DNA of 64,000 nucleotides from Occultella glacieicola. GTDB taxonomy: Bacteria; Actinomycetota; Actinomycetes; Actinomycetales; Beutenbergiaceae. Position 1 is the stretch's first letter, and each line of letters starts with the position of its first letter. The translations under genes were made by a program, and so were the position numbers. Under the pieces are notes generated by a model that was not told the origin of the DNA, made no database searches, and saw only the letters and a list, made by a program, of their open reading frames with translations. Below, one piece after another: positions 34,408 to 63,861 of the stretch. The stretch is taken from assembly GCF_004353825.1 (NCBI RefSeq), contig NZ_SMNA01000010.1:1-64000 (forward strand). Direction: 5' to 3'.

Positions 34408-34419
34408 ACACGGGTGGCC

Positions 34420-36596: not shown

Positions 36597-36597
36597 C

Positions 36598-44752: not shown

Positions 44753-45616
44753 GTGCAGACTGTATGGGGCGTGGCCACCGATGCCGGTGGGCGTCGCAAG
44801 GCGAACGAGGATTCCGTGCTGGCCACGCCGTCGGTTTTCCTCGTCGCCGATGGCATGGGCGGGCACGTCCATGGCGCGATGGCCTCGGGCGCGGTGGTGG
44901 CGGAGTTCTCCCGCTACGCCGACACGGTCCGGCCCGACGTGGAGGTGCAGCCCACCGACGTGCAGGCCGTGGTGCGCGCCGCCCAGCAGCGGATCCGGGC
45001 CTCGCTGTCGAACGTGCAGGAGTCCGTCGGTGACCATCCCGTCACCGCCGGTAGCACCGCCGCGGGGGCGATCCTCACCCGGCACGCCGACGCCCCGTAC
45101 TGGCTCGTGTTCAACGTGGGTGACTCGCGGGTGTACCGGTTCGCCGAGGGCGCGCTGACCCGGATCAGCGTGGACCACTCCGTAGTCCAGGAGTTGGTGG
45201 ACTCCGGTGCGATCACCGACGAGCAGGCCCGCACCCATCCGCAGCGGAACGTCATCACCCGGGCCGTGGGCAGCGGGATCGACGTCGAGCCCGACTTCTG
45301 GATGCTCTACGCCGGCACCGCCGAACGGCTGCTGCTGTGTTCCGACGGTCTCATCAACGAGCTGAGCGAGGACCGGATCGCCGGCGTGCTCGGCGGTGAC
45401 CTGGGCGCCCAGGACGCCGCGGCGGCGCTGCTGGCCGAGGCCATCGCCGGCGGTGCCCGGGACAACGTCTCGGTGATCGTCGTCGACCTGACCCCCGATC
45501 ACGAACTGCTGGCGACGACCGCCCCGCGCGAGGGCGCGAGCGAGCCCGGCGGCGCGGATGACACCGTGCCTCGGGAGCAGGGCGCCGGCGCGGACCGGAA
45601 CTGGTGGTGGGCGTGA
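44753..45616 (+). CDS. PP2C/PPM-family Ser/Thr protein phosphatase
   Basis: NEDS, VADGMGGH, NVGDSR, LCSDGL, DNVS; GAGGAG RBS favours GTG 44753. Confidence 0.93.
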   Translation: MQTVWGVATDAGGRRKANEDSVLATPSVFLVADGMGGHVHGAMASGAVVAEFSRYADTVRPDVEVQPTDVQAVVRAAQQRIRASLSNVQESVGDHPVTAGSTAAGAILTRHADAPYWLVFNVGDSRVYRFAEGALTRISVDHSVVQELVDSGAITDEQARTHPQRNVITRAVGSGIDVEPDFWMLYAGTAERLLLCSDGLINELSEDRIAGVLGGDLGAQDAAAALLAEAIAGGARDNVSVIVVDLTPDHELLATTAPREGASEPGGADDTVPREQGAGADRNWWWA

Positions 45617-47613
45617 GCCTCGAATACGTGCCGGGGGAGTGGACCGGTCTCGCGACCGGGACCGGGGTGGTGCTGCTCGCGCCGACGGTGCCGTCGGTGA
45701 CGGTGCAAGCCGTGTGGGACGCGCTCGCCGGTGGCCGCCCGATCACGCAGTGGCTCGAGATCATCGCCGGCGGCGGTATCTCGTCGCTTCCCGCGTTCGC
45801 CCTCGTGGAACGCACGCCCGACGGCGTCCGGGTACTTCTGCGGGGCGACGTGGTCGTCGACGTGGATGGCACCGAGGTGGCCGCGCGCGGCATGAGCACG
45901 TGGCGCGAGGAACTGGTCCGGGCGACCACGGACATCGTGGTGCGCACCCCCGCCGCGTTCGGTGCGGACGGTGAGGCGTGGCCGCTGCTCGGCGGAGTCG
46001 TCCGAGCGGCCCGGATCCGCATGGACCTGGCCGACGCGGCACCGATCGCCTCCGGGGCGTCCGGCGCGGCGGTGGCCGCTTCCGCGGAAGCGGCGGCTGC
46101 GGCCGAACCGATGGCGACCGAACCGGCGACTGCGGCCGAGCCGGTCCGAGCTGAGCCGGCTCCGGAGCCGCCCGACGACGATTCGCTCGCCTCGGCGCAG
46201 CCGGTCGACGTCTTCGAGGAGGCCGGGTTCGGCCCGGCCGGCGGCGGGGCCGAGGCGGCGGATCAGGGCGACGAGGATGAGGGTGCTTCCGCGGAGGCGC
46301 CGGTGTCGGAGCCCGAGGGTGACGATGCTCCCGCGGAGGCGCCGGTGTCGGAGCCCGAGGGTGACGATGCTCCCGCGGAGGCGCCGGTGCCGGGTCCCGA
46401 GAGCGACGATGCTGCCGCGGAGGCACCTGTACCTGGGCCCGACGGTGACGATGCTTCCGCGGAAGCACCCGTGCCCGAGAGTGAGGTCGCTTCCGCGGAA
46501 GCGTCGGTGGCGGAGCCCGTGGGAGGGGATGCTTCCGCTGAAGCGCCCGCGCCCGCCGACGGCAGCGACGCCGACCCGCTCGAGCACGAGACCTACGTGG
46601 GCCCGGTTCCGGACATCGCGGCGCCCGGGGCGATCGAGTCGGGTGCGCCCGACGGGCCCGAACAGCACGACCCCGACCGCGGTGTGCCCGAGCACGATGT
46701 CCCCGAGCACGATGTCCCCGAGCACGGCGGCCCTGTACCCGGCGGCTCCGCACCCGAGCCGCCAGCGGACGAGAACCCCGAGCCCGAGGTTCCCGAGCCA
46801 GGCATCTCCGAGCCCGAGGTCGCCGAGCCCGAGGCCCCCGCCGCCCCCGAGGACCCGGCGACCGACGCCCCGCCGCCACCCACCCCGGTGCCGCCGCAAC
46901 CACCGGCCGGCACCCCGACCGCGGAGTACGAACAGGTCGGACCGGTCAGCAGCGGGCTGATCGACTCGCTCCCCTGGAACATGCCGAACGCCCGCGAAGC
47001 GGACGCAGCGGCGCAGCCGCCGGCGCCCAGCCCGGTCCCCACGTTCGACCCGCCGTCCGAGCGGGACTCCGCTCCGCCGTCGTCCGCCGGTGACGCCGAG
47101 ATCGAGGGCGACCATGACGGCGAGACGATCCTGGTCTCCCACCTGCGCACCGCCTACGCCCAGGACGCCGCCGACGCGGTACCCGACCAGCCGCCGTCGG
47201 CCACGATCGTGCCCGGCGTCGCCGACGACGCGCTGTACGACGAACCCCGCCCGATGATCATGCTCGGGGTCTCCAGCGGCCCGCGGGTACCGCTCGACCG
47301 GGTCGTCCTGATCGGGCGGGCACCGGAGTCCTCGCGGTTCGCGGGATCGCTGATGCCGCGCCTGGTGACCGTCCCGAGCCCGCAGCAGGACATCTCCCGC
47401 ACCCACGTCGAGGTCCGCCTGGAGGGCGACCATGTGGTGGTCACGGACCTGCGGTCCACGAACGGCACGCTGGTCGCCGTGCCCGGCAACGACCCGCGCC
47501 GGCTGCACCCGGGCGAGGGCGTGCCGGTCCCGGTGGGCTCCCTGATCGACCTCGGCGACGGCATCACCATCTCCGTCGAGAGTGCCGGTCGGGCCCACGG
47601 ACAGGGCCACTAG
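45613..47613 (+). CDS. FHA-domain protein with uncharacterised N-terminal domain and acidic Pro-rich repetitive linker
   Basis: C-terminal IGRAP...ISRTH...DLRSTNGT; GTGA overlap with PP2C. Confidence 0.9.
   Translation: MSLEYVPGEWTGLATGTGVVLLAPTVPSVTVQAVWDALAGGRPITQWLEIIAGGGISSLPAFALVERTPDGVRVLLRGDVVVDVDGTEVAARGMSTWREELVRATTDIVVRTPAAFGADGEAWPLLGGVVRAARIRMDLADAAPIASGASGAAVAASAEAAAAAEPMATEPATAAEPVRAEPAPEPPDDDSLASAQPVDVFEEAGFGPAGGGAEAADQGDEDEGASAEAPVSEPEGDDAPAEAPVSEPEGDDAPAEAPVPGPESDDAAAEAPVPGPDGDDASAEAPVPESEVASAEASVAEPVGGDASAEAPAPADGSDADPLEHETYVGPVPDIAAPGAIESGAPDGPEQHDPDRGVPEHDVPEHDVPEHGGPVPGGSAPEPPADENPEPEVPEPGISEPEVAEPEAPAAPEDPATDAPPPPTPVPPQPPAGTPTAEYEQVGPVSSGLIDSLPWNMPNAREADAAAQPPAPSPVPTFDPPSERDSAPPSSAGDAEIEGDHDGETILVSHLRTAYAQDAADAVPDQPPSATIVPGVADDALYDEPRPMIMLGVSSGPRVPLDRVVLIGRAPESSRFAGSLMPRLVTVPSPQQDISRTHVEVRLEGDHVVVTDLRSTNGTLVAVPGNDPRRLHPGEGVPVPVGSLIDLGDGITISVESAGRAHGQGH
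46285..46550 (+). repeat. Coding 42-bp tandem repeat (AxAEAPVxxPEGDD), about 6.5 copies
   Basis: Units at 46285, 46327, 46369, 46411, 46453, 46489, 46531. Confidence 0.85.
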
Positions 47614-49260
47614 GTGGCGGGCCGCCGGCCGCCGTCGCCACCTCCCGAGATCGCGGGCTACACCCACGAACGCCTGGTCGGCTCGGGTGGCTTCGCCGAC
47701 GTCTTCCTCTACACCCAGCACCTGCCGCGCCGGCCTGTGGCGGTCAAGGTGATGCTCGCGCACGCCACCAGTCCGCAGGCACGCGAGCAGTTCGTGGCCG
47801 AGGCGAACGTGATGGCGCAGCTGTCCACGCACCCCTCGATCGTGACCATCTACCACGCGGACACCGCCCCCGACGCGCGCCCGTTCCTGGTGATGGAGTA
47901 CTGCCCGCGCCCGAACCTGTCGGTGCGCTACCGCACCGAGCGGATCGGGGTCGCCGAGGCGCTGCGGATCGGGGTCCGGCTCGCCGGTGCCATCGAGACC
48001 GCGCACCGGGCCGGGATCCTGCACCGTGACATCAAGCCCGCGAACGTGCTCACCACCGACTACGGGTGGCCCGCCCTGACCGACTTCGGCATCTCCGTGG
48101 CCACCGACGCGGTCGAGGAGACGGACACCATCGGCCTGTCGATCCCGTGGGCGGCGCCGGAATTCTTCTCCGAGGGCGCCGAGCGCGGCGTGGCCGGCGA
48201 CATCTACTCACTCAGCGCCACGATCTACACCCTGCTCGCAGGGCGGTCGCCGTTCGAACGCGAGGGCGGCCCGAACGGCGCCCTGGACCTGATCACGCGG
48301 ATCGAGCGGGACCCGGTGCCGGTGATCGGCCGCGACGACGTCCCCGACTCCCTGAGCCAGGTCCTGGCCCGCGGCATGGCCAAGGCGGCGCGCGACCGGT
48401 ACGCCACCGCCGCCGACCTGGCCCGGGCGATCCAGCGGGTCGAGCAGGAGTTGCGGCTCTCGCAGACCAGCCTGGACGTGCCGGACACGTCCTGGATCCA
48501 CGTGCCGGAGAACGTCGGCGAGGACCTGCGCACCCGGGCCCGCTCGGTCGTCACGGTCGCCCCGGAGGCCCCGCCGACCACGGGCGACCCACTGGCGGGG
48601 GAACGCACGGTGCTGCGTCCGCAGGTGGTCCCGCAGGCACCGCCCGACGGCGGAGCGCTCCGCCCGCAGGCCCCGCACCCGGGCGGGGGGCCGGGTGGGT
48701 ACGCCCCGGCGGGCGCGCCCGGTCAGCAGGGCGGCGGCCCCTCGGGGCTGGCGCCGCCCGGGACCGGGCCGTCGGCAAGCGAACCGGGCCACGGCGCTCC
48801 GGGCGGACCCGGCGGGGCGAGCGGACCGGGACCGCGCCGTCGGTGGCCCGTGTGGGCCGCCGTGGGTGGCGTGATCGCGGTCGTCGGCACCGGCGTCATC
48901 ATCGGCGCCCTGAACGCCCCGGACCCGCCCGAGCCGACGCCCACAGCGACCACGACGATGCCCCCGGACGACCCGAGCGCCGCCGCGCACCCGCCGGCGC
49001 CGGAGGACGTCAGCGGCACCCGGGATCCGGACGGGACCATCACGTTCAGCTGGGCGCCCGTCGAGGCCGACGCCGAGATCACCTACGTCTGGACCTACAC
49101 CCGGGGGGCTCCGGCGGAGGACTCCGGGGGGGCCCAGGAGACGTTCGGGGCGACGTCGGTGAACGTGCCCGATTCCGCGGACTATGTTTGTATCAGTGTG
49201 CTCTCGGTCTATACGGAGAGCCGTTCCGTTTCGAATGAGAGTGTTGAAGGATGCGCGTAG
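47614..49260 (+). CDS. Transmembrane Ser/Thr protein kinase with FN3-like extracellular domain
   Basis: GSGGFADV, VAVK, HRDIKPAN, DFG, APE; one TM; C-terminal beta-rich domain with 2 Cys. Confidence 0.94.
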   Translation: MAGRRPPSPPPEIAGYTHERLVGSGGFADVFLYTQHLPRRPVAVKVMLAHATSPQAREQFVAEANVMAQLSTHPSIVTIYHADTAPDARPFLVMEYCPRPNLSVRYRTERIGVAEALRIGVRLAGAIETAHRAGILHRDIKPANVLTTDYGWPALTDFGISVATDAVEETDTIGLSIPWAAPEFFSEGAERGVAGDIYSLSATIYTLLAGRSPFEREGGPNGALDLITRIERDPVPVIGRDDVPDSLSQVLARGMAKAARDRYATAADLARAIQRVEQELRLSQTSLDVPDTSWIHVPENVGEDLRTRARSVVTVAPEAPPTTGDPLAGERTVLRPQVVPQAPPDGGALRPQAPHPGGGPGGYAPAGAPGQQGGGPSGLAPPGTGPSASEPGHGAPGGPGGASGPGPRRRWPVWAAVGGVIAVVGTGVIIGALNAPDPPEPTPTATTTMPPDDPSAAAHPPAPEDVSGTRDPDGTITFSWAPVEADAEITYVWTYTRGAPAEDSGGAQETFGATSVNVPDSADYVCISVLSVYTESRSVSNESVEGCA

Positions 49261-49285
49261 TTCGGCGCAACGAAGGGGGCCTTGG

Positions 49286-50026
49286 ATGAGCATGCAGGTC
49301 GAGTTCTGCGGCGAATGGTTCGGGGTCGAGGAGGACGACACCTTCCAGATCGGTCGTGAGGGGAACCTCGAGATCGACGACAACCCGTACCTGCACCGCC
49401 GGTTCCTGACGATCTCCCACCACGACGACCTCTGGTGGCTGGAGAACGTCGGCAGCCGGCTGTCCGCGACGGTCTCCGACTCCGACGGCAACATGCAGGC
49501 CTGGCTCGCCCCCGGGGCGCGGCTCCCGTTGGTGTTCGCGCACACCACGGTGTTGTTCACGGCCGGCCCGACCACCTACGAGCTGGGCATCGTCGGGGAC
49601 TCGCCGGCGTTCGAGTCCTCCACGCCGGAGCGCACCCAGGTCGGGGAGACCACCATCGGCCCGGTCACGCTCACCGACTCCCAGAAGCTGCTCATCATCG
49701 CGCTCGCCGAGCCGGTGCTGCGTGGCCGCGGCTCGACGGCGTCCATCCCCACCTCCGCGCAGGCTGCGGCCCGGCTCGGCTGGGTGATCACCCGGTTCAA
49801 CCGGAAGTTGGACAACGTCTGCGAGAAGCTCTCCCGGCACGGCGTTCGCGGGCTGCGCGGCGGGCAGCAGCAACTGGCAGTGAACCGGCGGGCGCGGCTC
49901 GTCGAACACGCCGTCGCGTCCCGGATCGTGGTGGCGGCGGACCTGGAACTCCTCGAGGCCAACGCCGAGGCGGCCGTCGCCGAGAAGGTGGAGAAGGAGA
50001 GCGCGAGCGCCGCCAGCGGCGCCTGA
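49286..50026 (+). CDS. Hypothetical protein, degenerate FHA-like N-terminus plus probable HTH C-terminus
   Basis: FQIGREG...LHRRF...LENVGS; LTDSQ...TSAQAAARLGW...KLDNVCEKL. Confidence 0.75.
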   Translation: MSMQVEFCGEWFGVEEDDTFQIGREGNLEIDDNPYLHRRFLTISHHDDLWWLENVGSRLSATVSDSDGNMQAWLAPGARLPLVFAHTTVLFTAGPTTYELGIVGDSPAFESSTPERTQVGETTIGPVTLTDSQKLLIIALAEPVLRGRGSTASIPTSAQAAARLGWVITRFNRKLDNVCEKLSRHGVRGLRGGQQQLAVNRRARLVEHAVASRIVVAADLELLEANAEAAVAEKVEKESASAASGA

Positions 50027-50169
50027 TCGACCGGTCCGAGGGTCAGGTGTGGCCCATGTCGCATCAGTTGGTGCGATCTCACCATGGGCTCATTCAGGTG
50101 CGGCAGGTACCCTGACCCCGGGGACACGGCCGGTCCTCCACTTCATCCTGTAACTGCGGGGGCAGCATC

Positions 50170-53100
50170 TTGAGTCTGACGTCACGTCTGGCGCGCAACA
50201 AGCGCCGGATCGCGAGCGCCACCGTGATCTCCCTCGTGGTCGGCACGGTGGTCGCGCTCAGCCTCAACTACGAGGGCGTCGCCACGGCGGATGTCGAGCT
50301 CAACGACGGTGGCGTCTGGGTCTCGAACAACAACGATATCCTCGTCGGCCGGCTGAACTACCCGATCCAGGAGATCGACGCGAGCCTGGCCGGGCCGGGC
50401 TCGAACATCGACGTCCTGCAGCGCGAGGACGTGGTGTTCCTGCGCGACTTCAACTCCAACACGCTCCAGCGGGTCTCGACGGCGAACGTGGCCGTCAGCG
50501 GCGGCGTGGTGCAACTGCCGTCCGGTTCGGACATCGGCCTGGGTGACGACACGCTCGGGGTGCTCATCGAGGAGACCGGCGAGTACCGGGTCCTCGGCCT
50601 GGATCAGCTCGGCGTCCTCGAGGAGTCGACCGAGGACCCGACCGCCGTGCTCGGTGAGGGCGCCGTGCAGGCCGTGGCCGACGACGGCACCGCCTACGGT
50701 CTGGACGTCCTCGACGGCACCCTGTCCACGTTCACGCCGCAGGGCCGCGCCGCCGGTGACGAGCCCGAGACCGCCGAGCTCGACCCCGAGCTCCTCAGCG
50801 GCGCCGAGGTGCAGATGACCGTGGTCGGCGACGCCCCGGTGATCCTCGCCTACACCGAGGAGGACGACAGCCTGCACCTGCTGCAGCCGGGCCGCGACGC
50901 CGTCGACCTCTCCGGCCTCGAGCTCGACGCCGCGAGCGCGACCCTGCAGAGCGTCAGCCCGAACGGCGACACCGTGGCCCTGGCCACCACCGACGCCCTG
51001 GTGCGGGTGCCGCTCGGCGGGGGCGACCCGCAGGTGGTACCGGTGGAGAACCCCGGTCAGCCGGCCGCGCCGATGCAGATCTCCGGATGCACCCACGGTG
51101 CCTGGGCCGGCGGGCCCGCCTCGTACCTGCGCCTGTGCGGCGACACCGACCCGGTCGACCTCCCGGTCTCCGAGGCCACCGGCGGCGAGCTGAAGTTCCG
51201 CACCAACCGCGGCAACGTCGTCCTCAACGAACTGTCCTCCGGCAACTCCTGGATGATCGAGGACGCCCTCATCCTGGTGGACAACTGGGAGGACGTCACC
51301 CCTCCGCAGGACGAGGAGGAGGAAGAGGAGGAGTCCCAGGACCTCGAGCAGCAGGAGGTGCCGCTGGACCGGGAGGCCGAGAACCGACCGCCGACGGCGC
51401 AACCGGACTCGATCGGGCTGCGTGCCGGCGCGACCGTGGTGCTGCCGGTCCTGGACAACGACTCCGACCCCGACGGCGACCTGCTCATCGCCTCGGCGTT
51501 CGACGCCGTCCCGGAGACGTTCGGCACCGTCGAGGCGATCCTCGGCGGGCGGGCCCTGCAGATCCGGGTGGCCGAGGATGCGAGTGGCTCCGCGAACTTC
51601 AGCTACACCGCGGACGACGGCCGTGGCGGCACCGACACCGCCACGGTCGACCTCACCGTGCTCCCGAACTCGGTCAACGAACCGCCCGAGCAGCTGCGTG
51701 ACATCACGGCGCGGGTGGCCGCCGGTCAGAGCGTCACGGTGAACGTCATGAACGACGTCCGTGACCCCGAGGGCGACTCGATGTTCGTCGAGGGCACCGC
51801 CGAGGCCGCCGGTCTGGTGGTCCTCGCCAACCCGAACGGGTCGGTCACGATCACCGATCCCGGCCTGGCGACCGGGATCAAGGAGGTCATCGTCCTGCTC
51901 AGCGACGGCCGGGACGTGGCCGAGGTGACCCTGCAGATCGAGGTGCTGCCGGACGCGCCGGCCGCGCCGCAGGCGGTCTTCGACTTCGCGACCGCGTTCG
52001 TGGACGAGACCATCACGGTCGAGCCGCTCACGAACGACCTCGACCCGAACAACCGCCCGCTGCGGATGTCCAACGTGACCGCGGACAACGGCGGCCCGGA
52101 GATCGTGCCGGACATGGACGGCGGCACGTTCACGTTCACCGCGCAAGCCGCGGGGGACTACTACCTCACCTACATCCTCGCCGACGACGACGGCCAGCAG
52201 TCCACCGGGCTGATCCGTGTGAACGTGCGGGCCAAACAGGAGACGCCGCCGGTCGCGGTCGCCGATACCGCGCTGCTGCCGCCGCTCGGCTCGGTCCTGG
52301 TCGACGTGCTGCAGAACGACTCCGACCCGAACGGTGGGGTGCTCGCCGTCCAGCAGATCGACGTCCCGGACATCCCGGGTCTGCAGGTCGCCGTGCTCGA
52401 GCACCGGATCCTGCGGATCACCGCCACCCGCACGGTGAGCCAGCCGTTCACCATCAACTACACGGTCTCCAACGGGCTCGCGAGCGCGCCCGGTCAGGTC
52501 CAGGTGCTCCCGATGACCGGGGCCGAGGCCTCCCAGCCCCCGGTCGCCGAGGAGGACGTGGCCCGGGTCCGTGCCGGTGACCACGTGACCATCCCGGTCC
52601 TGGCCAACGACACCCACCCGAACGGGCTCACCTTCGAACTCTCCCCGGAGCTGGAGGAGGCCCCGGCGGAGGGTCAGGGTCTGATGTTCGTGGCCGGCGA
52701 CGTGGTCCGGTTCCAGGCGCCGGCGGAGGCCGGCACGGTGACCGCGGTCTACTCGATCGTCGACGAGGCCGGCCGGGTCGGCTCGGCCCGGATCACCATC
52801 TATGTCCAGGCCCGCTCCGACGACGCGAACGCCCCGCCGGTGCCGCAGCCCGTGGAGACCCGTTCGTTCGCAGGGGAGCGGATCCGGATCCCGATCAACA
52901 CCTACGGCATCGACCCGGACGGCGACTCGGTGCAGCTTCTCGGCGTGGCCGAGGGCCCGCAGCTCGGTCGGATCGTGGCGACCGGGCCGACGTACCTCGA
53001 CTATCAGGCGTACGTCGACGAGGCCGGCACCGACACGTTCAGCTACACGGTCCGGGACCGGCTCGGCCTCGTCGCGACCGCCCCGATCACGGTCGGCGTG

Positions 53101-56100: not shown

Positions 56101-56280
56101 TTCACCGTGTCGAGCAGCAACTGTGGCAACACGTTCACCCGTGACTACGACGGTGTCGCCGCCGGCGGCGGGGACGGCCGGTGGCAGTCCGGCGGCTATT
56201 GGGGCACGTCCTGCCGCGGCACGGTCACCTGGACCCTGACCGGCGGTGGCAATCGCTACAGCGGCTCGTCAGGTTGGTGA
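50170..56280 (+). CDS. 2036-aa surface protein, N-terminal anchor, tandem Ig/cadherin-like (NDxDPDGD) repeats and FN3 domains
   Basis: Many NDxDPxG motifs; WTAPNDNGAPITGY-type FN3 repeats; TTG start. Confidence 0.92.
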   Translation: MSLTSRLARNKRRIASATVISLVVGTVVALSLNYEGVATADVELNDGGVWVSNNNDILVGRLNYPIQEIDASLAGPGSNIDVLQREDVVFLRDFNSNTLQRVSTANVAVSGGVVQLPSGSDIGLGDDTLGVLIEETGEYRVLGLDQLGVLEESTEDPTAVLGEGAVQAVADDGTAYGLDVLDGTLSTFTPQGRAAGDEPETAELDPELLSGAEVQMTVVGDAPVILAYTEEDDSLHLLQPGRDAVDLSGLELDAASATLQSVSPNGDTVALATTDALVRVPLGGGDPQVVPVENPGQPAAPMQISGCTHGAWAGGPASYLRLCGDTDPVDLPVSEATGGELKFRTNRGNVVLNELSSGNSWMIEDALILVDNWEDVTPPQDEEEEEEESQDLEQQEVPLDREAENRPPTAQPDSIGLRAGATVVLPVLDNDSDPDGDLLIASAFDAVPETFGTVEAILGGRALQIRVAEDASGSANFSYTADDGRGGTDTATVDLTVLPNSVNEPPEQLRDITARVAAGQSVTVNVMNDVRDPEGDSMFVEGTAEAAGLVVLANPNGSVTITDPGLATGIKEVIVLLSDGRDVAEVTLQIEVLPDAPAAPQAVFDFATAFVDETITVEPLTNDLDPNNRPLRMSNVTADNGGPEIVPDMDGGTFTFTAQAAGDYYLTYILADDDGQQSTGLIRVNVRAKQETPPVAVADTALLPPLGSVLVDVLQNDSDPNGGVLAVQQIDVPDIPGLQVAVLEHRILRITATRTVSQPFTINYTVSNGLASAPGQVQVLPMTGAEASQPPVAEEDVARVRAGDHVTIPVLANDTHPNGLTFELSPELEEAPAEGQGLMFVAGDVVRFQAPAEAGTVTAVYSIVDEAGRVGSARITIYVQARSDDANAPPVPQPVETRSFAGERIRIPINTYGIDPDGDSVQLLGVAEGPQLGRIVATGPTYLDYQAYVDEAGTDTFSYTVRDRLGLVATAPITVGVIPPPDTNRDPVAVPDEITVRPSRALQTDPLANDTDPDGDQLFFDDPAFSGTGGLEVSIEDGQVAFESPAEAGTYIVTYNVTDRHGGSDTGALTVIVDPDHAPQPPIAVDDVVPASAILGETLVDVVVLENDTDPDGSVEDLEVSIPAGNATAQSVGNNVRIELTDNRQVVTYQVTDQDGLSSYAFIDVPGLLDTGPVLNPDAPPIEVLAGESVELPLEDYVVALSGQPVQLADTTTVRATNSDGSNPVVDATTLQYTSDPEYVGAASLTFEVTDAPDINADGILTSVLTLDITVTSDENKPPRVRAGSLSAEAGGESESLDLSRLADDPDGDPGLLEYEIADEVPGFDVEITDDVILTVSAHEDTAKGTAEDLIINVTDGESDPVPLTVTLTATGSTRELIVANNDDAGDIHQGESTTVDVLANDSNPFPDSERTILSAQIVQGSGTAAVSGDQVTITPAPEYNGRLLASYTVVDVTGDPDRVVEAQISAAVLGRPDPPYVPLVGSEGNREVVLSWTAPNDNGAPITGYTVSGGGVSQQCATTTCTIGGLTNGNVYSFTVTATNEVGESDPSPASREAIPDVKPQAPAPPTLEFGDGELAVNWTPPVNEGTPITSYDVQISPATGGTSQQSVTGTSMTWTGLTNGQTYTFRVRAINDAPEPGDWSGWSQGEYPSGPPLQPAAPQANRVDDPDGRRLTVSWSPPNNNGDAISAYYLTVIQDGAPAAPITLSGSVTSREVQVENGHDYRFTVVAENRSGRSPASGPSNQVRSFGQPGQVTGVSAAPTGADQRATVGYSAPASNGQAISRYEYSLSGGGAQSLPSSGTISTPGADGTSYTVRVRACNTYCGPWSAASASFSTYGPPSASGVDISSSANGRQVSFSWTAPASNNGANITATRWRIDGGGWTVVNGRTGNASTGGNWEQNHTIDVQVRNQHGQWSSGSASRTERAEEDPTPPQPPPVVIGADRGAGATCDGGGSCAHVVLTYQNLPAVSGGYHAVFTVSSSNCGNTFTRDYDGVAAGGGDGRWQSGGYWGTSCRGTVTWTLTGGGNRYSGSSGW

Positions 56281-56320
56281 TCTCCGTGCGCTCCGCCCGA
56301 TCGAACGAACAGAAGGACAC

Positions 56321-57319
56321 ATGACCGCAACTGACACCCGCGCCGCCCTGACCGCCGAACAGGCGGGGTGGTTCGCGGACACCTTCGAACGGCTCGTCGG
56401 CAACGTCTCCCAGGCGGTGCTCGGCAAGCCGCACGTGGTGCGCCTGGCGTTCACGTGCCTGCTTAGCAACGGTCACCTGCTCCTCGAGGACTACCCGGGC
56501 ACCGGGAAGACCTCGCTCGCGCGCGCCCTGGCCGCCACCGTGCAGGCCACCCACAGCCGGATCCAGTTCACTCCGGACCTGCTGCCCTCGGACGTCACCG
56601 GCGTGACGATCTTCGACCAGGAGTCCCACCAGTTCCAGTTCCACAAGGGCCCGATCTTCGCGTCCGTGGTCCTCGCGGACGAGATCAACCGGGCCTCCCC
56701 GAAGACGCAGTCGGCGCTCCTGGAGGTCATGGAGGAGGGCCGCGTCACGATCGACGGCATCCCGCACGAGGTGGGCCGCCCGTTCATCGTGCTGGCCACC
56801 CAGAACCCGATCGAGCAGGCCGGCACCTACCGGCTCCCCGAGGCGCAGCTGGACCGGTTCCTGATGCGCTCCTCGATCGGCTACCCGGACACCGACGCGA
56901 CCGTCGCGATCCTGGCCGGCAGCGCCATCCGGGACCGCTCCGCCACGCTGAGCCCGGTGATCACCGGCTCGGCCGTCGTGGACATGGCGGACCTGGCCGC
57001 GACCGTGTACGTCGACCCGGCCGTGCTCTCCTACGTCACCCAGATCGCCGAGGCCACCCGCCGGGCGCCCGAGATCGCGCTCGGGGTGTCCGTGCGTGGC
57101 GCGCTCGGGCTGGTCCGGGCCGCGAAGACCTGGGCAGCCTCGCAGGGCCGCCACTACGTGATCCCGGACGACGTCAAGGCCCTCGCGGAGCCCGTGCTCG
57201 CGCACCGGCTGGTCCTGGACGCCGAGGCGGAGTTCGAGGGCGCCGAGGCCGGCACCTCGCTCACCCGGATCCTCGCCGAGGTCGCGCCGCCGGCCCAACG
57301 AGCCTCGGTGACCTCCTGA
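56321..57319 (+). CDS. MoxR-family AAA+ ATPase
   Basis: EDYPGTGKT, RIQFTPDLLPSD, LADEINRA, LPEAQLDRF. Confidence 0.95.
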   Translation: MTATDTRAALTAEQAGWFADTFERLVGNVSQAVLGKPHVVRLAFTCLLSNGHLLLEDYPGTGKTSLARALAATVQATHSRIQFTPDLLPSDVTGVTIFDQESHQFQFHKGPIFASVVLADEINRASPKTQSALLEVMEEGRVTIDGIPHEVGRPFIVLATQNPIEQAGTYRLPEAQLDRFLMRSSIGYPDTDATVAILAGSAIRDRSATLSPVITGSAVVDMADLAATVYVDPAVLSYVTQIAEATRRAPEIALGVSVRGALGLVRAAKTWAASQGRHYVIPDDVKALAEPVLAHRLVLDAEAEFEGAEAGTSLTRILAEVAPPAQRASVTS

Positions 57320-57320
57320 C

Positions 57321-58577
57321 GTGAGCGGATTCGGCACCGAGGGCACTCCCCGCTCGGTCGGCTACACCACCAGCTCGGTCACCCGGGTGGTGGCGGGCCT
57401 GGTAACCCAGGTGCGGCGGACCACGAGCGTCCTCACCTGGATCACCCGGGCCGCCTGGGTGGTCCTGGCCGTCGGCGTGGTCGCGCTGGTCGCGGGATTC
57501 TGGCTGAATTGGATCGAGCTGATCGTGCTCGGCGCCGGGTTCGTCTGCGCCCTGCTGGCGGCCGCCGTCTTCGCGATCGGCCGGCACCCGTACGCGATCA
57601 CCCTCCGGCTGCGTGAGGGCCGCGTGGTCGTCGGCGAGCGGGCCATGGGCGGCATCGATATCCGCAACACGTCCCACTCGTCCGTGCTCCCGGCACGTAT
57701 CGAGCTGCCGGTCGGCAGCACCCGCGCGAGCTTCGCCCTGCCCGGGCTGCCCCCCGAGGGAGAGCACGACGAACTGTTCGCGATCCCGACCACCCGCCGC
57801 GGCGTCATCGTGGTCGGCCCGGTGTCCTCGGTGCGCGGCGACCCGCTCGGGCTGATCCGCCGGTCGGTCCTGTGGACCGACCCGGAGGAGCTCTACGTCC
57901 ACCCGCGCACGATCCGGATGGGCGGGTCGGCAGCGGGGTTCCTGCACGACCTCGAGGGCCGGGAGACCCGCGAGATCACGAACGCGGACCTGTCCTTCCA
58001 CGCCCTGCGCGAGTACGTCCCCGGCGACGACCGCCGCTACGTGCACTGGCGGTCCTCGGCCCGCACCGGCACCCTCATGGTGCGCCAGTTCGAGGAGACC
58101 CGCCGCTCCCACCTGGTCCTGGCGATCTCGGCCCAGGACCGCGACTACGCGGACCCGGACGAGTTCGAGCTGGCGATCTCCGCCGTCGGATCCCTGGGCC
58201 TGCAGGCCCTCAACAGCGAGAAGCAGCTCACCGCGATGTCCTCGCACGAGGTGCTCCGCACCGCGGCGCCGCGGCCGTTCCTGGACGAGCTGACCCGGCT
58301 CGAGACCGTGAAGTCGCCCACCACGGTGGTGGAGATGGCCCGGACGATCACCAGGGACGTGCTCCGCGCGACGGTCGCCGTGATGATCTGCGGCTCCAGC
58401 GTGAGCGCCCGGGACATCCGGGCCGCCGGTGCGGTGCTGCCGGTCGGGGTGCGCGCCCTGGCGATCCAGACCCGGATCGGCGCGGAGCCGTCGGTGCACC
58501 GGCTCGGTTCGGTCACCGTCCTCGAACTGGGGGCGCTGGAGGACCTGCCCCGCGGCTTCCGGAAGCTGGAACGATGA
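57321..58577 (+). CDS. DUF58 protein (2 TM + vWA-like domain)
   Basis: GDPLGL, LREYVPGDDRRYVHWRSSAR. Confidence 0.92.
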   Translation: MSGFGTEGTPRSVGYTTSSVTRVVAGLVTQVRRTTSVLTWITRAAWVVLAVGVVALVAGFWLNWIELIVLGAGFVCALLAAAVFAIGRHPYAITLRLREGRVVVGERAMGGIDIRNTSHSSVLPARIELPVGSTRASFALPGLPPEGEHDELFAIPTTRRGVIVVGPVSSVRGDPLGLIRRSVLWTDPEELYVHPRTIRMGGSAAGFLHDLEGRETREITNADLSFHALREYVPGDDRRYVHWRSSARTGTLMVRQFEETRRSHLVLAISAQDRDYADPDEFELAISAVGSLGLQALNSEKQLTAMSSHEVLRTAAPRPFLDELTRLETVKSPTTVVEMARTITRDVLRATVAVMICGSSVSARDIRAAGAVLPVGVRALAIQTRIGAEPSVHRLGSVTVLELGALEDLPRGFRKLER

Positions 58578-60844
58578 GCGCCCCGGTCGCGGCCGTGGAC
58601 CCGGTGGTCGACGCACCCGAACCCGCGCCGAGCGCCCCCCGCCCGACGTGGCTCACCTGGTTCACCCGGGCCAGGGTGGTCAACGCCGTCGTCCCGGTGG
58701 TGCTGCTCGCGATGGCGCTGGCACCCCTGCAGCAGGTCTACCTGACCCGGCACCTGTTCATCACGATCATCGGCGGCCTGCTCCTCGGCGGCGGCATCGC
58801 CGTCCTCGGCGCGATGCGCCGGCTGAGCACCCTGACCGTGCTCGCCGTCTCCCTCGTCGTGTTCTTCCTGTGCGGGGCCCTGGCCGCGCCGACCACCGCG
58901 ATCGCCGGGATCCTGCCCACCCCGACCACGTGGCGGGTGATGGGCCTGGGCGTCGTCACCGTCTGGAAGTCCGTGCTGACGCTGGACCCGCCGCTGGGCA
59001 CCGGGGGCGGACTGCTCCTGCTGCCCTACCTGCTGGCCTTCTTCGGCGCACTGATCTCGGTCACGGTCTCGCTGCGCGCCAAGCACTTCACGCTCAGCCT
59101 GATCCCGCCGGCCCTGGTCCTGATCGCCTCGATCCTGTTCGGGACCCGGCTGTCGGTCCTGGCCGGGGTGCTCGGCATCGCCGGGGTGCTGATCTCGCTG
59201 ACCTGGGTGGCCTGGCGGGCGGACCGGCTGGAACCGAACCGCATCCTCGCCGCCTCGATCGTGCTCGGCCTCGCCGCGCTCGGCGGCACCACCGCGTCGG
59301 TGTTCGCGGCCCCGGACAACCCGCGCGTGGTGCTGCGTGACTTCGTCGACCCGCCGCCGGACCCGCAGGACTACTCCAGCCCGCTGGCCGGGTTCCGCAA
59401 CTACGTCGACGAGCAGGCCGAGGAGACGGTGTTCACGGTGACCGGGCTGCCCGCCGGCACCGAGCGGATCCGCCTCGCGGCGCTGGACTCCTACAACGGC
59501 ACGGTCTGGAACGTCGCCGGCGGCGACAACCCCGGCACCGGCGCCTTCATGCGGACCGGCGAGCGGATCGCCGTCGACGTCCCGGAGAACGCGGTGAGCA
59601 CGTCGGTGAGCGTCGACGGATACCGCGGGGTGTGGCTGCCGAACGTCGGCAACACCCTCGACGTGGACTTCACGACGGGCGACGTCGACGCCCTCACCGA
59701 CTCCTTCTACTACAACGCGACCACGGACACCGGCTTGGTCACCCGCGGGCTCGCCGAAGGTGACGGGTACGAGCTGGTCTCGGCCCCGGCCGCCGAGGCT
59801 CCCAGCGACGTCACCCAGCTCGTGGCGTCCCGGGTCGCGCAGCCGTCGCCGCGGTCGGTGCCGGACATCGTCGGCTCCCTCGCCGGGCAGTGGGCCGCGG
59901 ACGCCAACTCCGACTACGCCAAGGTCGAGGCGCTCGCCAGCGCGCTCAGCACGCAGGGCTTCTTCTCCCACGGGCTCGTCGGTGAGGTGCCGTCCCGGCC
60001 CGGCCACGGCGCCGCCCGGCTGCTGAGCATGTTCGAGGGCGATCAGATGGTGGGCGACGCCGAGCAGTACGCCGCCGTGATGGCCCTGATGGTCCGCGAG
60101 CTCGGCTACCCGGCCCGGGTCGTGATGGGCTTCGAGGTGCCCACCGGTGCCGACGCCGGCGCGGTCGCGATCACCGGCGAGAACGTGACCGCCTGGGTGG
60201 AGGTGCCGTTCGACGGGGTCGGCTGGCTGCCGTTCTTCCCGACCCCGGACGAGGACCAGATCCCGCAGAGCGAGGACCCGGACCCGGTGGACCGGCCCCA
60301 GCCGCAGGTGCTCCAGCCGCCGCCGCCCCCGCAGGAGCCGCCGGACGTGCCCCCGCAGGACCGCGACGACGCCGACGTCGAGGACCAGCAGACGAAGGAC
60401 GAGGAGTCGTTCGTGCGCTGGCTGCTCATCGGCGCCGCCGTGGGCGGGCCGATCCTGCTGCTGCTCAGCCCGTTCATCGTGATCGCGGCGATCAAGGCCC
60501 GACGGCGTAAGCGACGCCGGGTGCGCGGCGTACCCGTGCAGCGCATCGCCGGGGGCTGGTCCGAAGTCGAGGACCAGGCGGTCGACCTGGGGGTCACGCA
60601 CGGGCCGGGGGCCACCCGGCGGGAGGCTGCCGGCGCCTTCGACGAGGCGTTCCCGGCAGCGGGCACCGCGGTCCTGGCCCGGCGCGCGGACGCGAGCGTG
60701 TTCGCGCCGGATCTGGCCGGCGAGGACGAGGCGGTGGCGTACTGGCGGGACGTCCGTGGCGCCACGGACCGCCTGCGTCACGGCGTGAACCGGCGTCGCC
60801 GGTTGCGGGCCAGGTTCTCGCTCCGGTCGCTGCGCCGTCGATAG
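58574..60844 (+). CDS. Multi-TM transglutaminase-like protein, catalytic residues substituted
   Basis: Several N-terminal TMs; GDAEQYA...PARVVMGF...TAWVEV...FFPTP. Confidence 0.88.
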   Translation: MSAPVAAVDPVVDAPEPAPSAPRPTWLTWFTRARVVNAVVPVVLLAMALAPLQQVYLTRHLFITIIGGLLLGGGIAVLGAMRRLSTLTVLAVSLVVFFLCGALAAPTTAIAGILPTPTTWRVMGLGVVTVWKSVLTLDPPLGTGGGLLLLPYLLAFFGALISVTVSLRAKHFTLSLIPPALVLIASILFGTRLSVLAGVLGIAGVLISLTWVAWRADRLEPNRILAASIVLGLAALGGTTASVFAAPDNPRVVLRDFVDPPPDPQDYSSPLAGFRNYVDEQAEETVFTVTGLPAGTERIRLAALDSYNGTVWNVAGGDNPGTGAFMRTGERIAVDVPENAVSTSVSVDGYRGVWLPNVGNTLDVDFTTGDVDALTDSFYYNATTDTGLVTRGLAEGDGYELVSAPAAEAPSDVTQLVASRVAQPSPRSVPDIVGSLAGQWAADANSDYAKVEALASALSTQGFFSHGLVGEVPSRPGHGAARLLSMFEGDQMVGDAEQYAAVMALMVRELGYPARVVMGFEVPTGADAGAVAITGENVTAWVEVPFDGVGWLPFFPTPDEDQIPQSEDPDPVDRPQPQVLQPPPPPQEPPDVPPQDRDDADVEDQQTKDEESFVRWLLIGAAVGGPILLLLSPFIVIAAIKARRRKRRRVRGVPVQRIAGGWSEVEDQAVDLGVTHGPGATRREAAGAFDEAFPAAGTAVLARRADASVFAPDLAGEDEAVAYWRDVRGATDRLRHGVNRRRRLRARFSLRSLRRR

Positions 60845-60890
60845 GCGGATCTGTCAGACCGGGTACCGCGCGTCCGACTATGGTGTGCCC

Positions 60891-62207
60891 ATGGTGTGGT
60901 TCCAGGAGGAGAAGCGGTGGATCTCGCGGCCCGAGATCGAGTCACTGTGTGACCGGTTGCTGGACGAGGCGAAGCCGCGGTTGCAGATCACGTCCTACCA
61001 GCGGGTGCTGCTGCTGCCGCCGGACATCACCCGCGCCCACGCCGGCGTCGGCTGGATGACCGAGTACCTCTACCACCGCCTCGACGAGGCCGGCGCCGAG
61101 GTCCACGTGATCCCCACGCTCGGCCAGCACGTGCCGCACACACCGCAGGACAACACCTGGATGTTCGGGTCCATCCCCGAGGAGCGCATCCACGCCCACG
61201 ACTGGAAGAACGGCGTCACGAACGTCGGCACGGTGCCGGCGGAGTTCGTCGCCGAGCGCACCCACGGCGCCGTGGACTGGGAGATCCCGGTGGACCTGAA
61301 CACGATGACGGTCACCGAGCAGTGGGACCTGATCATCAACATCGGGCACGTGGTGCCGCACGAGGTGCTCGGGTTCGCGAACCACAACAAGAACTACTTC
61401 ATCGGGCTCGGGGGCAAGCGCACCCTCGGGGCCTCCCACATGGCCTCGGCGGTGTACGGGATCGAGAACAACCTCGGCAACCTGCTCACGCCGGTGCGGG
61501 CCTGCTTCAACTACGCGGAGGAAAACTTCCTCGGCCACCTGCCCGACGTCTACCTGCAGGTCGTCATGGACTACGACTCCAGCGGCGCTCTGGCGCACTC
61601 CGGCGTGTTCGTCGGCGACGACGTGGAGACCTACGTCGCCGCCGCCCGGTCCAGCCTGAGCCAGAACATCACCCAGTTCGACGAGCCCGTGGACAAGATC
61701 GTGGCCGTCATGCAGGAGGACGAGTTCCGGGCCACCTGGGTCGCGAACAAGGCGGTGTACCGCACCCGGATGGCGATGGCCGACGGCGGCGAACTGCTGG
61801 TCATCGCGCCCGGTGTGGAGCGGTTCGGCGAGCAGCCCGAGGTGGACGCGCTGATCCGCAAGTACGGCTACCTCAGCAAGGACGAGGTGCTGGAGCTGTA
61901 CAAGACCGAGGCGGACATGCAGGACATCCCGCACGGCACGGCGCACCTGGTGCACGGCTCGTCCGAGGGTCGGTTCCGGATCACGTACGCGCCCGGGCAC
62001 CTGACCAAGGAGGAGATCGAGTCGGTCGGGTACGGCTACCTCGACCTGTCCGAGGCACTGGCCCGGTACGACCCGGCGGTGATGAAGGACGGCTGGAACA
62101 CGATGCCCGACGGTGAACGGGTCTTCTACATCTCCACACCGTCGGCCGGCCTGTGGGCCACGCGGGAGAAGCTGTCCCAGCGCGCCGAACACGAGCAGCA
62201 CTCCTGA
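60891..62207 (+). CDS. LarA-family (lactate racemase domain) racemase/epimerase
   Basis: PDITR, LGQH, PHEVLGF, NKN, SH, NKA motifs in LarA order; TATGGT -10 box 6 nt before ATG. Confidence 0.8.
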   Translation: MVWFQEEKRWISRPEIESLCDRLLDEAKPRLQITSYQRVLLLPPDITRAHAGVGWMTEYLYHRLDEAGAEVHVIPTLGQHVPHTPQDNTWMFGSIPEERIHAHDWKNGVTNVGTVPAEFVAERTHGAVDWEIPVDLNTMTVTEQWDLIINIGHVVPHEVLGFANHNKNYFIGLGGKRTLGASHMASAVYGIENNLGNLLTPVRACFNYAEENFLGHLPDVYLQVVMDYDSSGALAHSGVFVGDDVETYVAAARSSLSQNITQFDEPVDKIVAVMQEDEFRATWVANKAVYRTRMAMADGGELLVIAPGVERFGEQPEVDALIRKYGYLSKDEVLELYKTEADMQDIPHGTAHLVHGSSEGRFRITYAPGHLTKEEIESVGYGYLDLSEALARYDPAVMKDGWNTMPDGERVFYISTPSAGLWATREKLSQRAEHEQHS

Positions 62208-63817
62208 ACGGCGGACCGACCCTGCATCCCGCACCCGCTCACCAGCGCGCCCGTTTCAGCCTGACCGCAGGCGCGGCCGAGTACCTCGCCGCGCCCGCGG
62301 ACCGGAGTCTGTGGCCGGACACCTGGACGCTGCAGCGGATCCGGCGGGACGCCCTCGGCGCGCTCGTCCGGGTCTACTGCGGCTGGCCCCGCACCATCGC
62401 CGCCGCCGCCGCGGTGCTCCTCGGGGCCGGCGGTGGCTTCCTCCTGATCCAGGGCCACGACGCGATGGACGTGACCGGGCTGATCTCCCGGATCGCCGGT
62501 CTCGTGCTCGTCGTGGCCGCCGTGGCCTTGGGGGGCTACGTGCTGTTCACCGGCGCGCGTCTGGTCGCGGCCATGTCCGCCTGGGGGCGGATCCGGCCCC
62601 AGGACCGCGTGGTCACGACCGGGACCCTGTTCACGCCCGCGTTCGTGGTCCGGGTGGTCGGGGCCGTGGCTGCGCTCGCCGGCGCGACCGTGCTGATCGT
62701 CCGCCAGCTGGACCCGGAGACCGCCCTGCCTGCGTTCGGGGCCGTGGCCATCATCGCGACCGGGATCATCGCCGGGCTCGGGTTGCTCGGCTCGGTGCTG
62801 GCCGTGCTGCTCGGACAGCGGGCGCCCAGCGGACCGGGGACCACGTCGCCCCGCGGCGCCGCGGCGGGCAGCCAGTACGAGCCCGGCGCGAGCCAGTACG
62901 CGCCCGGGGCCGGCCAGTACGCGCCCGGTGCGAGTCAGTACGGTCCCGGCGGGTACGCGTCGGCCGGAGCGGGCGCGTCGGCCGACCCGCCCCAGTGGCA
63001 GCCCGGGCCGGACCAGCCCGTGGGGCCGTCGGACCCCGCCGACCAGCAATGGGCGCAGCCGCCGCAGCCGGGCATGCCCGACCAGCCTGGCGGGTATCAG
63101 GGCGCAGCCGAGCCGTGGGCACAGCCGCCGCAGCCGGGCGTGCCCGACGGGCCGGACGGGTATCAGAGCGCGGCCGAGCCGTGGATGCAGCCGCCACAGC
63201 CGGGCATGGCCGACCAGCCGGGTGGGTATCAGGGCGCGGCCGAGCCGTGGGCGCAGCCGGGACAGCCCGGCCCGTCGGACGCCGAGCCGTGGGCGCAGCC
63301 CCCGCCCGCGCACCCCATGACCACCGGACACGATCCCGCGACGGCCGGACCTGCGCCGTCGGCGGCCGTAGCGCCAGCGGAACCGGCCCTTGACGGCGAC
63401 GACGACATCGAGCACACCCGCCTCGTGCACCGGAACCTGCCCCCGCCGGCCAAGGAGGACGTGACCCGCGCCGTCCGGGCACCGGAGATCCAGGTGCTCC
63501 TCTCCGACGGCCGGCACCTGCCCCTGAACGCGACCACGCTCCTCGGCCGGGCACCGCAGGCACGCACGAGCGAGCAGGTGGAGGGACTGCTGGAGGTGGA
63601 CGATCCCGCCGTCTCGAAGACCCACCTGTCGGTGCGGATCGAGGGCAACAAGGTCTGGGTGACGGACCGCGCGTCCACGAACGGGACCATCCTCAAGGGC
63701 CCCGGCGGGGACGAGACCGAACTGGAGCCGTGGCTGGAGACCGCCGTCGCCATCGGCGCCACCGTGCACTTCGGGCACGTGGTGCTCTCGGTGCTGCTGG
63801 ACGAGGCCACTGGCTGA
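62204..63817 (+). CDS. Membrane protein (4 TM) with repetitive Pro/Gln linker and C-terminal FHA domain; start codon uncertain
   Basis: LGRAP...VSKTH...DRASTNGT; start either GTG 62153 or CTG 62204. Confidence 0.85.
   Translation: MNGGPTLHPAPAHQRARFSLTAGAAEYLAAPADRSLWPDTWTLQRIRRDALGALVRVYCGWPRTIAAAAAVLLGAGGGFLLIQGHDAMDVTGLISRIAGLVLVVAAVALGGYVLFTGARLVAAMSAWGRIRPQDRVVTTGTLFTPAFVVRVVGAVAALAGATVLIVRQLDPETALPAFGAVAIIATGIIAGLGLLGSVLAVLLGQRAPSGPGTTSPRGAAAGSQYEPGASQYAPGAGQYAPGASQYGPGGYASAGAGASADPPQWQPGPDQPVGPSDPADQQWAQPPQPGMPDQPGGYQGAAEPWAQPPQPGVPDGPDGYQSAAEPWMQPPQPGMADQPGGYQGAAEPWAQPGQPGPSDAEPWAQPPPAHPMTTGHDPATAGPAPSAAVAPAEPALDGDDDIEHTRLVHRNLPPPAKEDVTRAVRAPEIQVLLSDGRHLPLNATTLLGRAPQARTSEQVEGLLEVDDPAVSKTHLSVRIEGNKVWVTDRASTNGTILKGPGGDETELEPWLETAVAIGATVHFGHVVLSVLLDEATG
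62870..63302 (+). repeat. Coding repeats: 21 bp x4 (SQYxPGA) and 66 bp x3+ (WAQPPQPGMPDQPGGYQGAAEP)
   Basis: Units at 62870/62891/62912/62933 and TGG at 63050/63116/63182/63248. Confidence 0.88.
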
Positions 63818-63861
63818 GCCGTCCGGTTCCCGCGCCCGCGGGGTGGGTTACACTGCCAGAC

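Follow-up and report, generated by a model that had tools for sequence, protein, structure and literature searches.

A probable Esr-type surface-sensing gene cluster with a triad-less transglutaminase-like protein in Occultella glacieicola

The DNA analysed here (hereafter the window) comprises 64,000 nucleotides of the Occultella glacieicola genome (GCF_004353825.1, contig NZ_SMNA01000010.1, positions 1..64,000, forward strand). It carries a cluster of co-oriented genes for a receptor kinase, a phosphatase, FHA-domain proteins, a giant exported filament, a MoxR ATPase and membrane partners, which is a further member of a system first described (2018 to 2021) under the name of PFNA operon and characterised functionally in 2026, when it was called the Esr pathway. 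A preliminary description, made from the letters alone, had listed nine co-oriented genes between 44753 and 63817; all nine are present on the plus strand over that span, but the span holds ten, as an epimerase gene had been missed. The genes are as follows (TM, transmembrane; aa, amino acids).

44753..45616, plus strand: PP2C phosphatase of the EsrF/PrpC type, motifs intact (Pfam PP2C_2, 1.5e-12)
45604..47613, plus strand: EsrG-type output protein with an N-terminal globular domain, an acidic/Pro-rich stretch and a C-terminal canonical FHA domain (FHA, 6.2e-08)
47614..49260, plus strand: receptor Ser/Thr kinase of the EsrE/Pkb2 type with a small extracellular domain (Pkinase, 1.5e-36; single TM helix 415-433)
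49286..50026, plus strand: protein with an FHA fold and a LuxR-type helix-turn-helix (HTH), without Pfam family (AlphaFold2 model, fold matches)
50170..56280, plus strand: EsrA/FN3 giant filament, 2036 aa (Pfam Big_9 and fn3; AlphaFold2 propeller)
56321..57319, plus strand: intact MoxR AAA+ ATPase belonging to the Esr/PFNA clade; its frame is open from 56246 (AAA_3, 3.6e-62)
57321..58577, plus strand: DUF58 protein with a hydrophobic segment at its N-terminus, taken as the Esr vWA component (DUF58, 7.6e-11; alignment, TM scan)
58574..60844, plus strand: EsrD/Tgm, a polytopic membrane protein whose extracellular domain is a pseudo-transglutaminase, with predicted docking of the EsrA propeller (Transglut_core, TgpA_N)
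60885..62207, plus strand: LarA-family putative hexonate epimerase, inserted passenger (NF052594)
62153..63817, plus strand: four-TM protein with a Pro/Gln-rich linker and a C-terminal canonical FHA domain, start codon uncertain (FHA, 8.6e-06; TM scan, motifs)

The frames of the nine genes first named, all on the plus strand, have a coding-type GC content at third codon positions (0.85-0.97), and intergenic gaps range from -55 to 143 nucleotides across the cluster. A Shine-Dalgarno-like GAGGAG lies immediately 5' of the GTG start at 44753 of the PP2C gene, and the FHA-HTH gene starts at either of two ATG codons, 49286 or 49292. A sequence scan of the locus revealed neither a sigma-70-type promoter-like site nor an excess of terminators, and no Rfam match was obtained. 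The proteins that had been called intact are so by their motifs: of those that we take to be diagnostic, the kinase keeps VAVK, HRDIKPAN, DFG and APE, the phosphatase ADGMGG, CSDGL and DNVS, the MoxR protein PGTGKT, DEINR and ATQNP, and both standard FHA domains GR, S-x-x-H and STNGT. Pfam matches and the TM scan likewise bear out the MoxR ATPase, the DUF58 protein and the membrane transglutaminase-like protein.

Signalling genes and MoxR module form one conserved unit, as the preliminary description had supposed. MoxR alone matched 41 of 41 genomes and was dropped as a marker because of paralogues (20 regions around chosen MoxR matches were fetched); profiles of EsrD, DUF58 and the EsrA propeller were used instead. 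Among the best 80 of 596 listed DUF58 loci from named genomes, a sample in which kin are not independent, DUF58 is flanked by filament, MoxR and transglutaminase-like genes in 75; of the other five, four are truncated and the fifth lacks a MoxR match. In a check of the neighbourhood within 10 kb, the 59 loci with full flanks carried the kinase gene in every case, the FHA-HTH gene in 57 and the PP2C gene in 47. The cluster is thus not a chance assembly. The shared order is a single cycle that is variably opened, namely kinase, FHA/HTH, filament, MoxR, DUF58, transglutaminase-like, FHA, PP2C and EsrG: in 48 loci (Arthrobacter, Microbacteriaceae, Promicromonospora, Brachybacterium) the kinase gene is found downstream, whereas 11 (Occultella, Georgenia, Nocardioides and others) have it upstream, most loci have an FHA gene 3' of the transglutaminase-like gene, and the FHA-HTH gene is directly 3' of the kinase gene in 81 of the 82 loci that carry it. 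Among loci L013-L019, L021-L100 and L101-L140, many contain a tandem second filament gene upstream, and the circular permutation together with these tandem genes fits a duplication followed by loss. The epimerase (585.8 bits against NF052594, a nickel-dependent putative hexonate epimerase, cut-off 500) has the transglutaminase-like gene on one side and the last FHA gene on the other. Its occurrence in no more than 8 of the 140 loci examined, each from a close relative, and in one of the 59 named full-flank loci marks it as a passenger. Several loci depart from the common pattern. Two (L005, L008) have the gene order of the window and no PP2C match ahead of the EsrG gene; four (L122, L125, L131, L135) have filament, DUF58 and transglutaminase-like genes and no MoxR gene, three of them adjoining Esx genes; and one (L119:1-7403, genome G512) contains an EsrD-like open frame of 3915 aa, the usual length being 750-900 aa.

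The cluster had been presented as uncharacterised, which does not hold: homologous clusters have been described twice. The PFNA operon of bifidobacteria has the order pkb2-fn3-aaa-atp-duf58-tgm(-prpC-hypothetical-fha) (PMC8430577, PMC6803598). According to PMC8430577 it is co-transcribed, its kinase Pkb2 phosphorylates MoxR in B. longum, and the cluster is called unique to bifidobacteria. The Esr pathway was reported as seven genes in Schaalia odontolytica F0309 (Esr1) by Wang et al. (bioRxiv 10.64898/2026.09.08.750141; hereafter the preprint), whose clusters combine a filament at the cell surface, bearing a beta-propeller at its N-terminus, with MoxR, vWA, kinase, phosphatase, FHA proteins and a transglutaminase. 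According to the preprint, Schaalia lost its response to a Saccharibacterium when esrA1 was deleted, and EsrG1 was no longer phosphorylated on Thr152; the T152A substitution had the same effect.

Two of the genomes searched (G673, G712) show the layout of the preprint, namely filament, MoxR, DUF58, transglutaminase-like protein, kinase, PP2C and an FHA protein (436 aa, Thr at 152), and also carry a second cluster inside Esx genes; they and the window are matched to Esr1 by features, not by name. The window and the first cluster of these genomes are 35% identical in the propeller, 37% in the Ig region, 56% in MoxR, 35% in DUF58 (compared with the same-position gene of the Esr1-layout loci) and 34% in the EsrD ectodomain. 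In a MoxR tree of 51 rows, the window protein fell in a clade of 45 (support 95/89) together with the Esr1-layout loci and those of a family (f6) with PFNA-type loci; the clade shuts out the five other MoxR proteins of the O. glacieicola genome and that of locus L020. The window MoxR scores 2e-08 against bpMoxR versus 4e-62 against AAA_3. For the kinase and PP2C, profile matches in locus L123 reached 2e-91 and 9e-61, and the window EsrG consists of an N-terminal globular domain of ~145 aa, a disordered acidic/Pro-rich region and, at the C-terminus, an FHA domain. The window cluster is probably an Esr pathway, with all seven roles present, that of the vWA partner putatively in the DUF58 protein. 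Shared with Esr1 are an exported propeller-and-Ig filament without LPXTG, MoxR, a DUF58 protein as the putative vWA partner, a transglutaminase-like membrane protein, a receptor kinase, PP2C, the protein with N-terminal domain, disordered region and FHA domain, the lack of adjoining esx genes, and the presence, at other places of the genome, of Esx genes and of a further cluster that is Esx-linked. The window cluster differs in that its order opens elsewhere (PP2C first), in having the FHA-HTH protein, the four-TM FHA protein and the inserted epimerase, and in an EsrG N-domain whose homology is undetectable.

The relation to PFNA came from family f6, in which 49 of 81 genomes had EsrD-like matches to a profile that included one f6 sequence. 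In all 20 top-match loci, single sequences of the window matched kinase, filament, MoxR, DUF58 and transglutaminase-like genes in the PFNA order, with PP2C next in 16, and one f6 locus has a filament-MoxR fusion and WS-AS/WS-ES motifs, as PMC8430577 gives for one species; f6 is equated with PFNA by this gene order, fusion and motifs, not by name. As judged from these comparisons, the window cluster is homologous to the PFNA operon. The two share five core genes, PP2C, FHA and the MoxR clade, and Tgm is Cys-less as well (0/21). PFNA, however, starts at the kinase and has no FHA-HTH gene, whereas in the window this gene splits the kinase from the filament, PP2C and EsrG precede the kinase, and the five core genes are not contiguous in a kinase-first order. 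The small gene between prpC and fha encodes a protein unlike the EsrG N-domain, and PFNA has been read in print as sensing host cytokines. The text of the preprint mentions neither bifidobacteria nor PFNA, and our literature searches found no paper that links PFNA with Esr or notes the dead triad described below, although figures or supplementary tables of the preprint may show some of this. The locus is one among thousands, the preprint having counted 3502 Esr pathways, and its value lies in uniting two literatures, on a bifidobacterial cytokine-receptor operon and on an anti-epibiont pathway, and in testable corrections to a very new model: EsrD is not a conventional transglutaminase, the propeller is probably a base, and the FHA-HTH protein is a candidate for the missing transcription step.

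The transglutaminase had been described as dead, and its triad is indeed lost. In the window EsrD, Cys, His and Asp of the triad are replaced by Ala496, Thr539 and Phe555, and when the EsrD profile is aligned to TgpA (6G49), whose activity depends on a Cys-His-Asp triad (PMC3507681), the TgpA Cys falls on Ala496. The triad is absent from the Esr1-layout protein as well. No Cys occupies the nucleophile column in 150 representatives of 50% clusters, which were ranked by a profile made from Cys-less sequences, nor in 137 locus matches (125 distinct), 21 f6 loci or any of the Esr1/Esr2-layout proteins, and four Esr1/Esr2-layout ectodomains that were checked contain no Cys anywhere. The residues found there, D, A, E, S, Q, G and H, are so variable that no substitute nucleophile is conserved at this column. 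As a control, an unrelated MoxR-DUF58-transglutaminase paralogue of the same genome (contig C22) retains Cys, His and Glu. Going by these residues, EsrD is a pseudo-enzyme and cannot be a conventional transglutaminase. The preprint proposed a covalent EsrD-EsrA linkage from the release of EsrA1 in an esrD1 mutant; the words 'cysteine' and 'catalytic' are absent from its text. In that version an active EsrD transglutaminase anchors EsrA covalently and the propeller is the distal sensor. A non-canonical nucleophile is conceivable, since in the neighbourhood of the old site Gly/His/Arg and Glu/Gln show 98-100% conservation. The column is never Cys, however, and the release of EsrA in the mutant is equally compatible with non-covalent holding. 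The loss of the triad counts against covalent anchoring.

A model of the complex bears on the same question. The EsrA propeller (36-378) and the EsrD ectodomain (257-566), with 106 aligned rows each, gave a complex score of 0.85, and the best of three controls 0.00; the runs agreed in at least 97% of contacts, with a partner pLDDT (predicted local distance difference test) of at least 89. Of solved pairs, 116 of 157 came up to the mark used, and of mismatched pairs 2 of 215; for alignments of our own these counts are a rough guide. As a prediction, the model supports binding of the propeller to EsrD, and the idea of the preliminary description, in which a dead transglutaminase serves the giant protein as its scaffold at the membrane, is upheld to the extent that the prediction is right. 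The modelled interface pairs EsrA 37-48, 63-71 and 103-108 with EsrD 260-280, 304-327 and 473-484; on the EsrD side it contains the invariant Pro270, Arg275, Gly477 and Arg482, with the vestigial triad outside it, and on the EsrA side no conserved Lys or Gln. The propeller would therefore sit on EsrD away from the old site, which further argues against the covalent version, and we consider that version improbable. A sequence search for a solved complex of EsrA-like and EsrD-like proteins returned only TgpA alone and designed or PknD propellers. An inactive transglutaminase as an anchor has a precedent in polymorphic toxins (Zhang et al. 2012, PMC3482391), where a triad-less domain was proposed as a peptide-binding filament anchor; there the domain is fused into the toxin polypeptide, and MoxR is not mentioned in the text of that paper.

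The 2036-aa repeat protein EsrA is as had been described: it has a hydrophobic N-terminal signal (residues 14-32, TM scan), the propeller, Big_9/cadherin-like Ig repeats and then FN3 repeats (nine Big_9 and three fn3 stretches in Pfam). The propeller (~44-374) was modelled at pLDDT 87, with a fold match of Z 20.2 (root-mean-square deviation, rmsd, 3.5; 293 aligned). Motif and TM scans of the C-terminus detected neither a sortase motif nor a TM anchor; the sole LPxTG pattern is internal, at 780. Residues 1841-2036 keep 50-64% identity within the genus versus 87% for the propeller, and in 32 of 35 orthologues, some of which are near-copies, conservation of this C-terminal domain falls below that of the propeller. 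It has no Pfam or NCBIfam family, and an Atlas search gave a weak FN3 lead (0.90, low recognition). On the docking model the propeller is probably the base rather than the tip of the sensor, and if so, the variable C-terminal domain may be the sensing tip. A filament-MoxR fusion in frame, without a TM segment in between, is encoded at L112:8413-14997 (minus strand); it was dropped as evidence on topology, because an internal Met has its own upstream ribosome-binding-like GGAG.

The C-terminus also figures in the PFNA view of the filament as a receptor for host cytokines. A C-terminal FN3 fragment of B. longum binds tumour necrosis factor alpha (TNF-alpha) in an enzyme-linked immunosorbent assay (PMC10688814), the TNF-alpha-binding fragment being likewise C-terminal in PMC12607495, and the window EsrA has a WSGWS motif at 1641. 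The WS-x-x-S pattern, however, occurs three times in this protein, and the cluster is found in named records of Arthrobacter, Agreia, Herbiconiux, Promicromonospora, Brachybacterium and Nocardioides, which indicates an older function. The best 80 of the 596 loci listed include no named record of Bifidobacterium or Schaalia. Cytokine reception is highly improbable as the function here.

Turning to the output side, the protein described as FHA-like with an HTH was confirmed as such by an AlphaFold2 model (pLDDT 81), in which the FHA fold matched at Z 13.0 (rmsd 1.8, 91 aligned) and the C-terminus matched the LuxR-type regulator DegU at a middling Z of 8.9 (rmsd 2.0, 68 aligned). The protein has no Pfam or NCBIfam family; among the nearest named Atlas clusters, as no more than a lead (0.89), are ones in which FHA is combined with GerE in 32% of members. 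With 51-87% identity across 45 homologues, the protein shows unusually high conservation. The route from EsrG phosphorylation to transcription is listed as unknown in the preprint, and the FHA-HTH protein is a candidate for this transcriptional output. In EsrG, the motif DHDGxT is kept in 61 of 67 homologues, and its Thr508 is a candidate phosphosite by sequence, though not the positional counterpart of Thr152. For the EsrG N-domain, four comparisons gave no significant match that would tie it to a pseudophosphatase, and the proposal that it corresponds to the bifidobacterial gene between prpC and fha was rejected (no profile match, different sequence). In the DUF58 alignment, the acidic position of what we take to be the MIDAS-type (metal-ion-dependent adhesion site) motif is mostly Ala or Ser.

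The evidence above is probably best explained by a surface-sensing phosphorelay of the Esr type. EsrA would be exported by its N-terminal signal and held non-covalently, its propeller on the dead EsrD ectodomain (retention by EsrD was shown in Schaalia, and the docking is predicted). The Ig/FN3 stalk would project the variable C-terminal domain to contact a foreign cell, e.g., a Saccharibacteria epibiont; dependence on EsrA was shown in Schaalia, and the tip is a putative assignment. A membrane complex of EsrD, DUF58 and MoxR may then relay or reset the signal, with the Pkb2 phosphorylation of MoxR (PMC8430577) as a parallel, and the kinase would fire. The kinase would phosphorylate EsrG on a Thr within its disordered region, and PP2C would undo this, the phosphosite being shown in Schaalia and Thr508 being a candidate only. 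Finally, FHA readers would carry the output, and the FHA-HTH protein may drive transcription of envelope and Esx genes located elsewhere.

The preliminary description had run the other way, with the kinase controlling a machine that assembles and displays a long adhesin. Adhesion of B. bifidum S17 is reportedly mediated by FN3 (PMC8430577, PMC12607495), MoxR proteins are chaperones, Pkb2 phosphorylates the MoxR of its own operon (PMC8430577), and EsrD, in our model, holds the filament. In Schaalia, however, the filament is required for phosphorylation and for the transcriptional response; since the FHA protein is no longer phosphorylated once the giant protein is deleted, the filament lies upstream of the kinase, as a sensor, and the direction is probably the reverse. 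The adhesin machine is therefore unlikely, while the scaffold idea within it holds.

The same architecture may serve as a general sensor of contact or envelope load (competitors, predators, surfaces) not specific to epibionts. Such a role would suit its broad spread (EsrD profile matches in 181 of 301 genomes of the order at 1e-30; propeller matches in 68 of 401 genomes of the class at 1e-5, 42 of these below 1e-30), the several copies in some genomes and the lack of esx linkage. On the other hand, the preprint reports that Esr1 tells apart two Nanosynbacter species and that the main Esr orders cover all proven Saccharibacteria hosts. We regard the general sensor as a less probable, though serious, alternative to the epibiont-sensing phosphorelay. 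Our literature search on soil hosts of Saccharibacteria found none.

Several observations weigh against the Esr-type phosphorelay or parts of it. The assignment in Occultella is made from its genes, and its hosting of Patescibacteria is hypothetical. The window cluster has no esx neighbours, as in Esr1. The EsrG N-domain shows no significant similarity to PP2C (hhalign 0.5%) or to the N-terminus of the Thr152 protein, where 17 of 500 shuffles scored as high, and Thr152 has no positional equivalent in the window EsrG. The FHA-HTH protein keeps Gly-Arg, but His-Arg-Arg-Phe stands in place of S-x-x-H and NGT is missing, which makes its binding of phosphothreonine uncertain. Four of the five genomes searched (G673, G712 and two f6 genomes) yielded no such gene, so that it cannot explain transcription in the organism of the preprint; an unlinked orthologue sought in these Esr1- and PFNA-layout genomes was found in one of the five, and there it adjoins the kinase gene of the cluster. 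Conservation is weakly enriched at the modelled interface (p=0.046 for the propeller, p=0.14 for EsrD). At long range the propeller is as divergent as the Ig stalk, and the preprint counts it among the most diverse parts.

It is attractive to speculate further, albeit tentatively, that Esr and PFNA are one system, in which EsrD clamps the propeller, the fast-evolving C-terminal domain ~1,500 residues away is the tip that confers specificity, a pull or binding event passes through EsrD, DUF58 and MoxR to the kinase, and the FHA-LuxR protein links phosphothreonine to transcription in most of the non-oral, non-gut lineages sampled. If so, TNF-alpha binding by the C-terminal fragment of bifidobacteria would be a by-product or a re-use of the tip.

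Two further systems share parts of the cluster. The PA2875-PA2874-PA2873 operon of P. aeruginosa (PMC3507681, 6G49) has the same MoxR-DUF58-TgpA core, with TgpA_N and Transglut_core; its TgpA differs in an intact triad and measured activity, and no filament, kinase or FHA genes are described there. The MoxR-vWA-beta-propeller ternary conflict systems (Kaur et al. 2020, PMC7159879) likewise combine MoxR, a vWA-like partner and a near-membrane propeller. There, however, propeller and vWA protein form one fusion, most hosts lie outside the actinobacteria and the P-loop is a GXXXTAKS variant, whereas in the window the propeller is on a separate exported protein and Walker A reads PGTGKT.

The window cluster is not of the Esx-linked, Esr2-like subtype: the EccC and WXG100 matches of the genome (EccC above cut-off on contig C21, three WXG100 matches) lie on other contigs, and contig C14 carries eccB-, eccD- and mycosin-like genes by reading of the sequence. 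A second, Esx-linked Esr-like cluster was noticed at C21:41700-55000 (L142). It encodes an FHA-FtsK/EccC fusion, which the EsrG-EccC fusions of the preprint resemble, a 1126-aa propeller and FN3 protein, MoxR, DUF58 and a Cys-less transglutaminase-like protein in which Ser takes the place of the Cys. Upstream there are a small WXG-like gene and an FHA-like protein, and downstream, on the opposite strand, there is a kinase. An Esx locus is split across the contig ends C14:1-7800 and C21:334000-342302 (L143, L144), which overlap in a Gly-rich open reading frame (ORF), and in it a gene for an RDD and FHA protein adjoins eccC. In its layout the Gly-rich ORF is AesB-like, with a helical start, repeats rich in Pro, a Gly-rich region and a charged tail, but it has no GYVNP; a search of the genome for this AesB motif gave two matches, both in proteins unlike AesB. 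Around the window cluster lie era and a hydrolase gene, together with leuA- and recO-like genes by reading of the sequence. The hydrolase, at 42878-44617, is a membrane-anchored alpha/beta hydrolase (Peptidase_S9-like) found directly 5' of the cluster in nine family-level loci. Further upstream, 39172-40215 and 40232-42073 (minus strand) hold ORFs of 347 and 613 aa without Pfam or NCBIfam matches.

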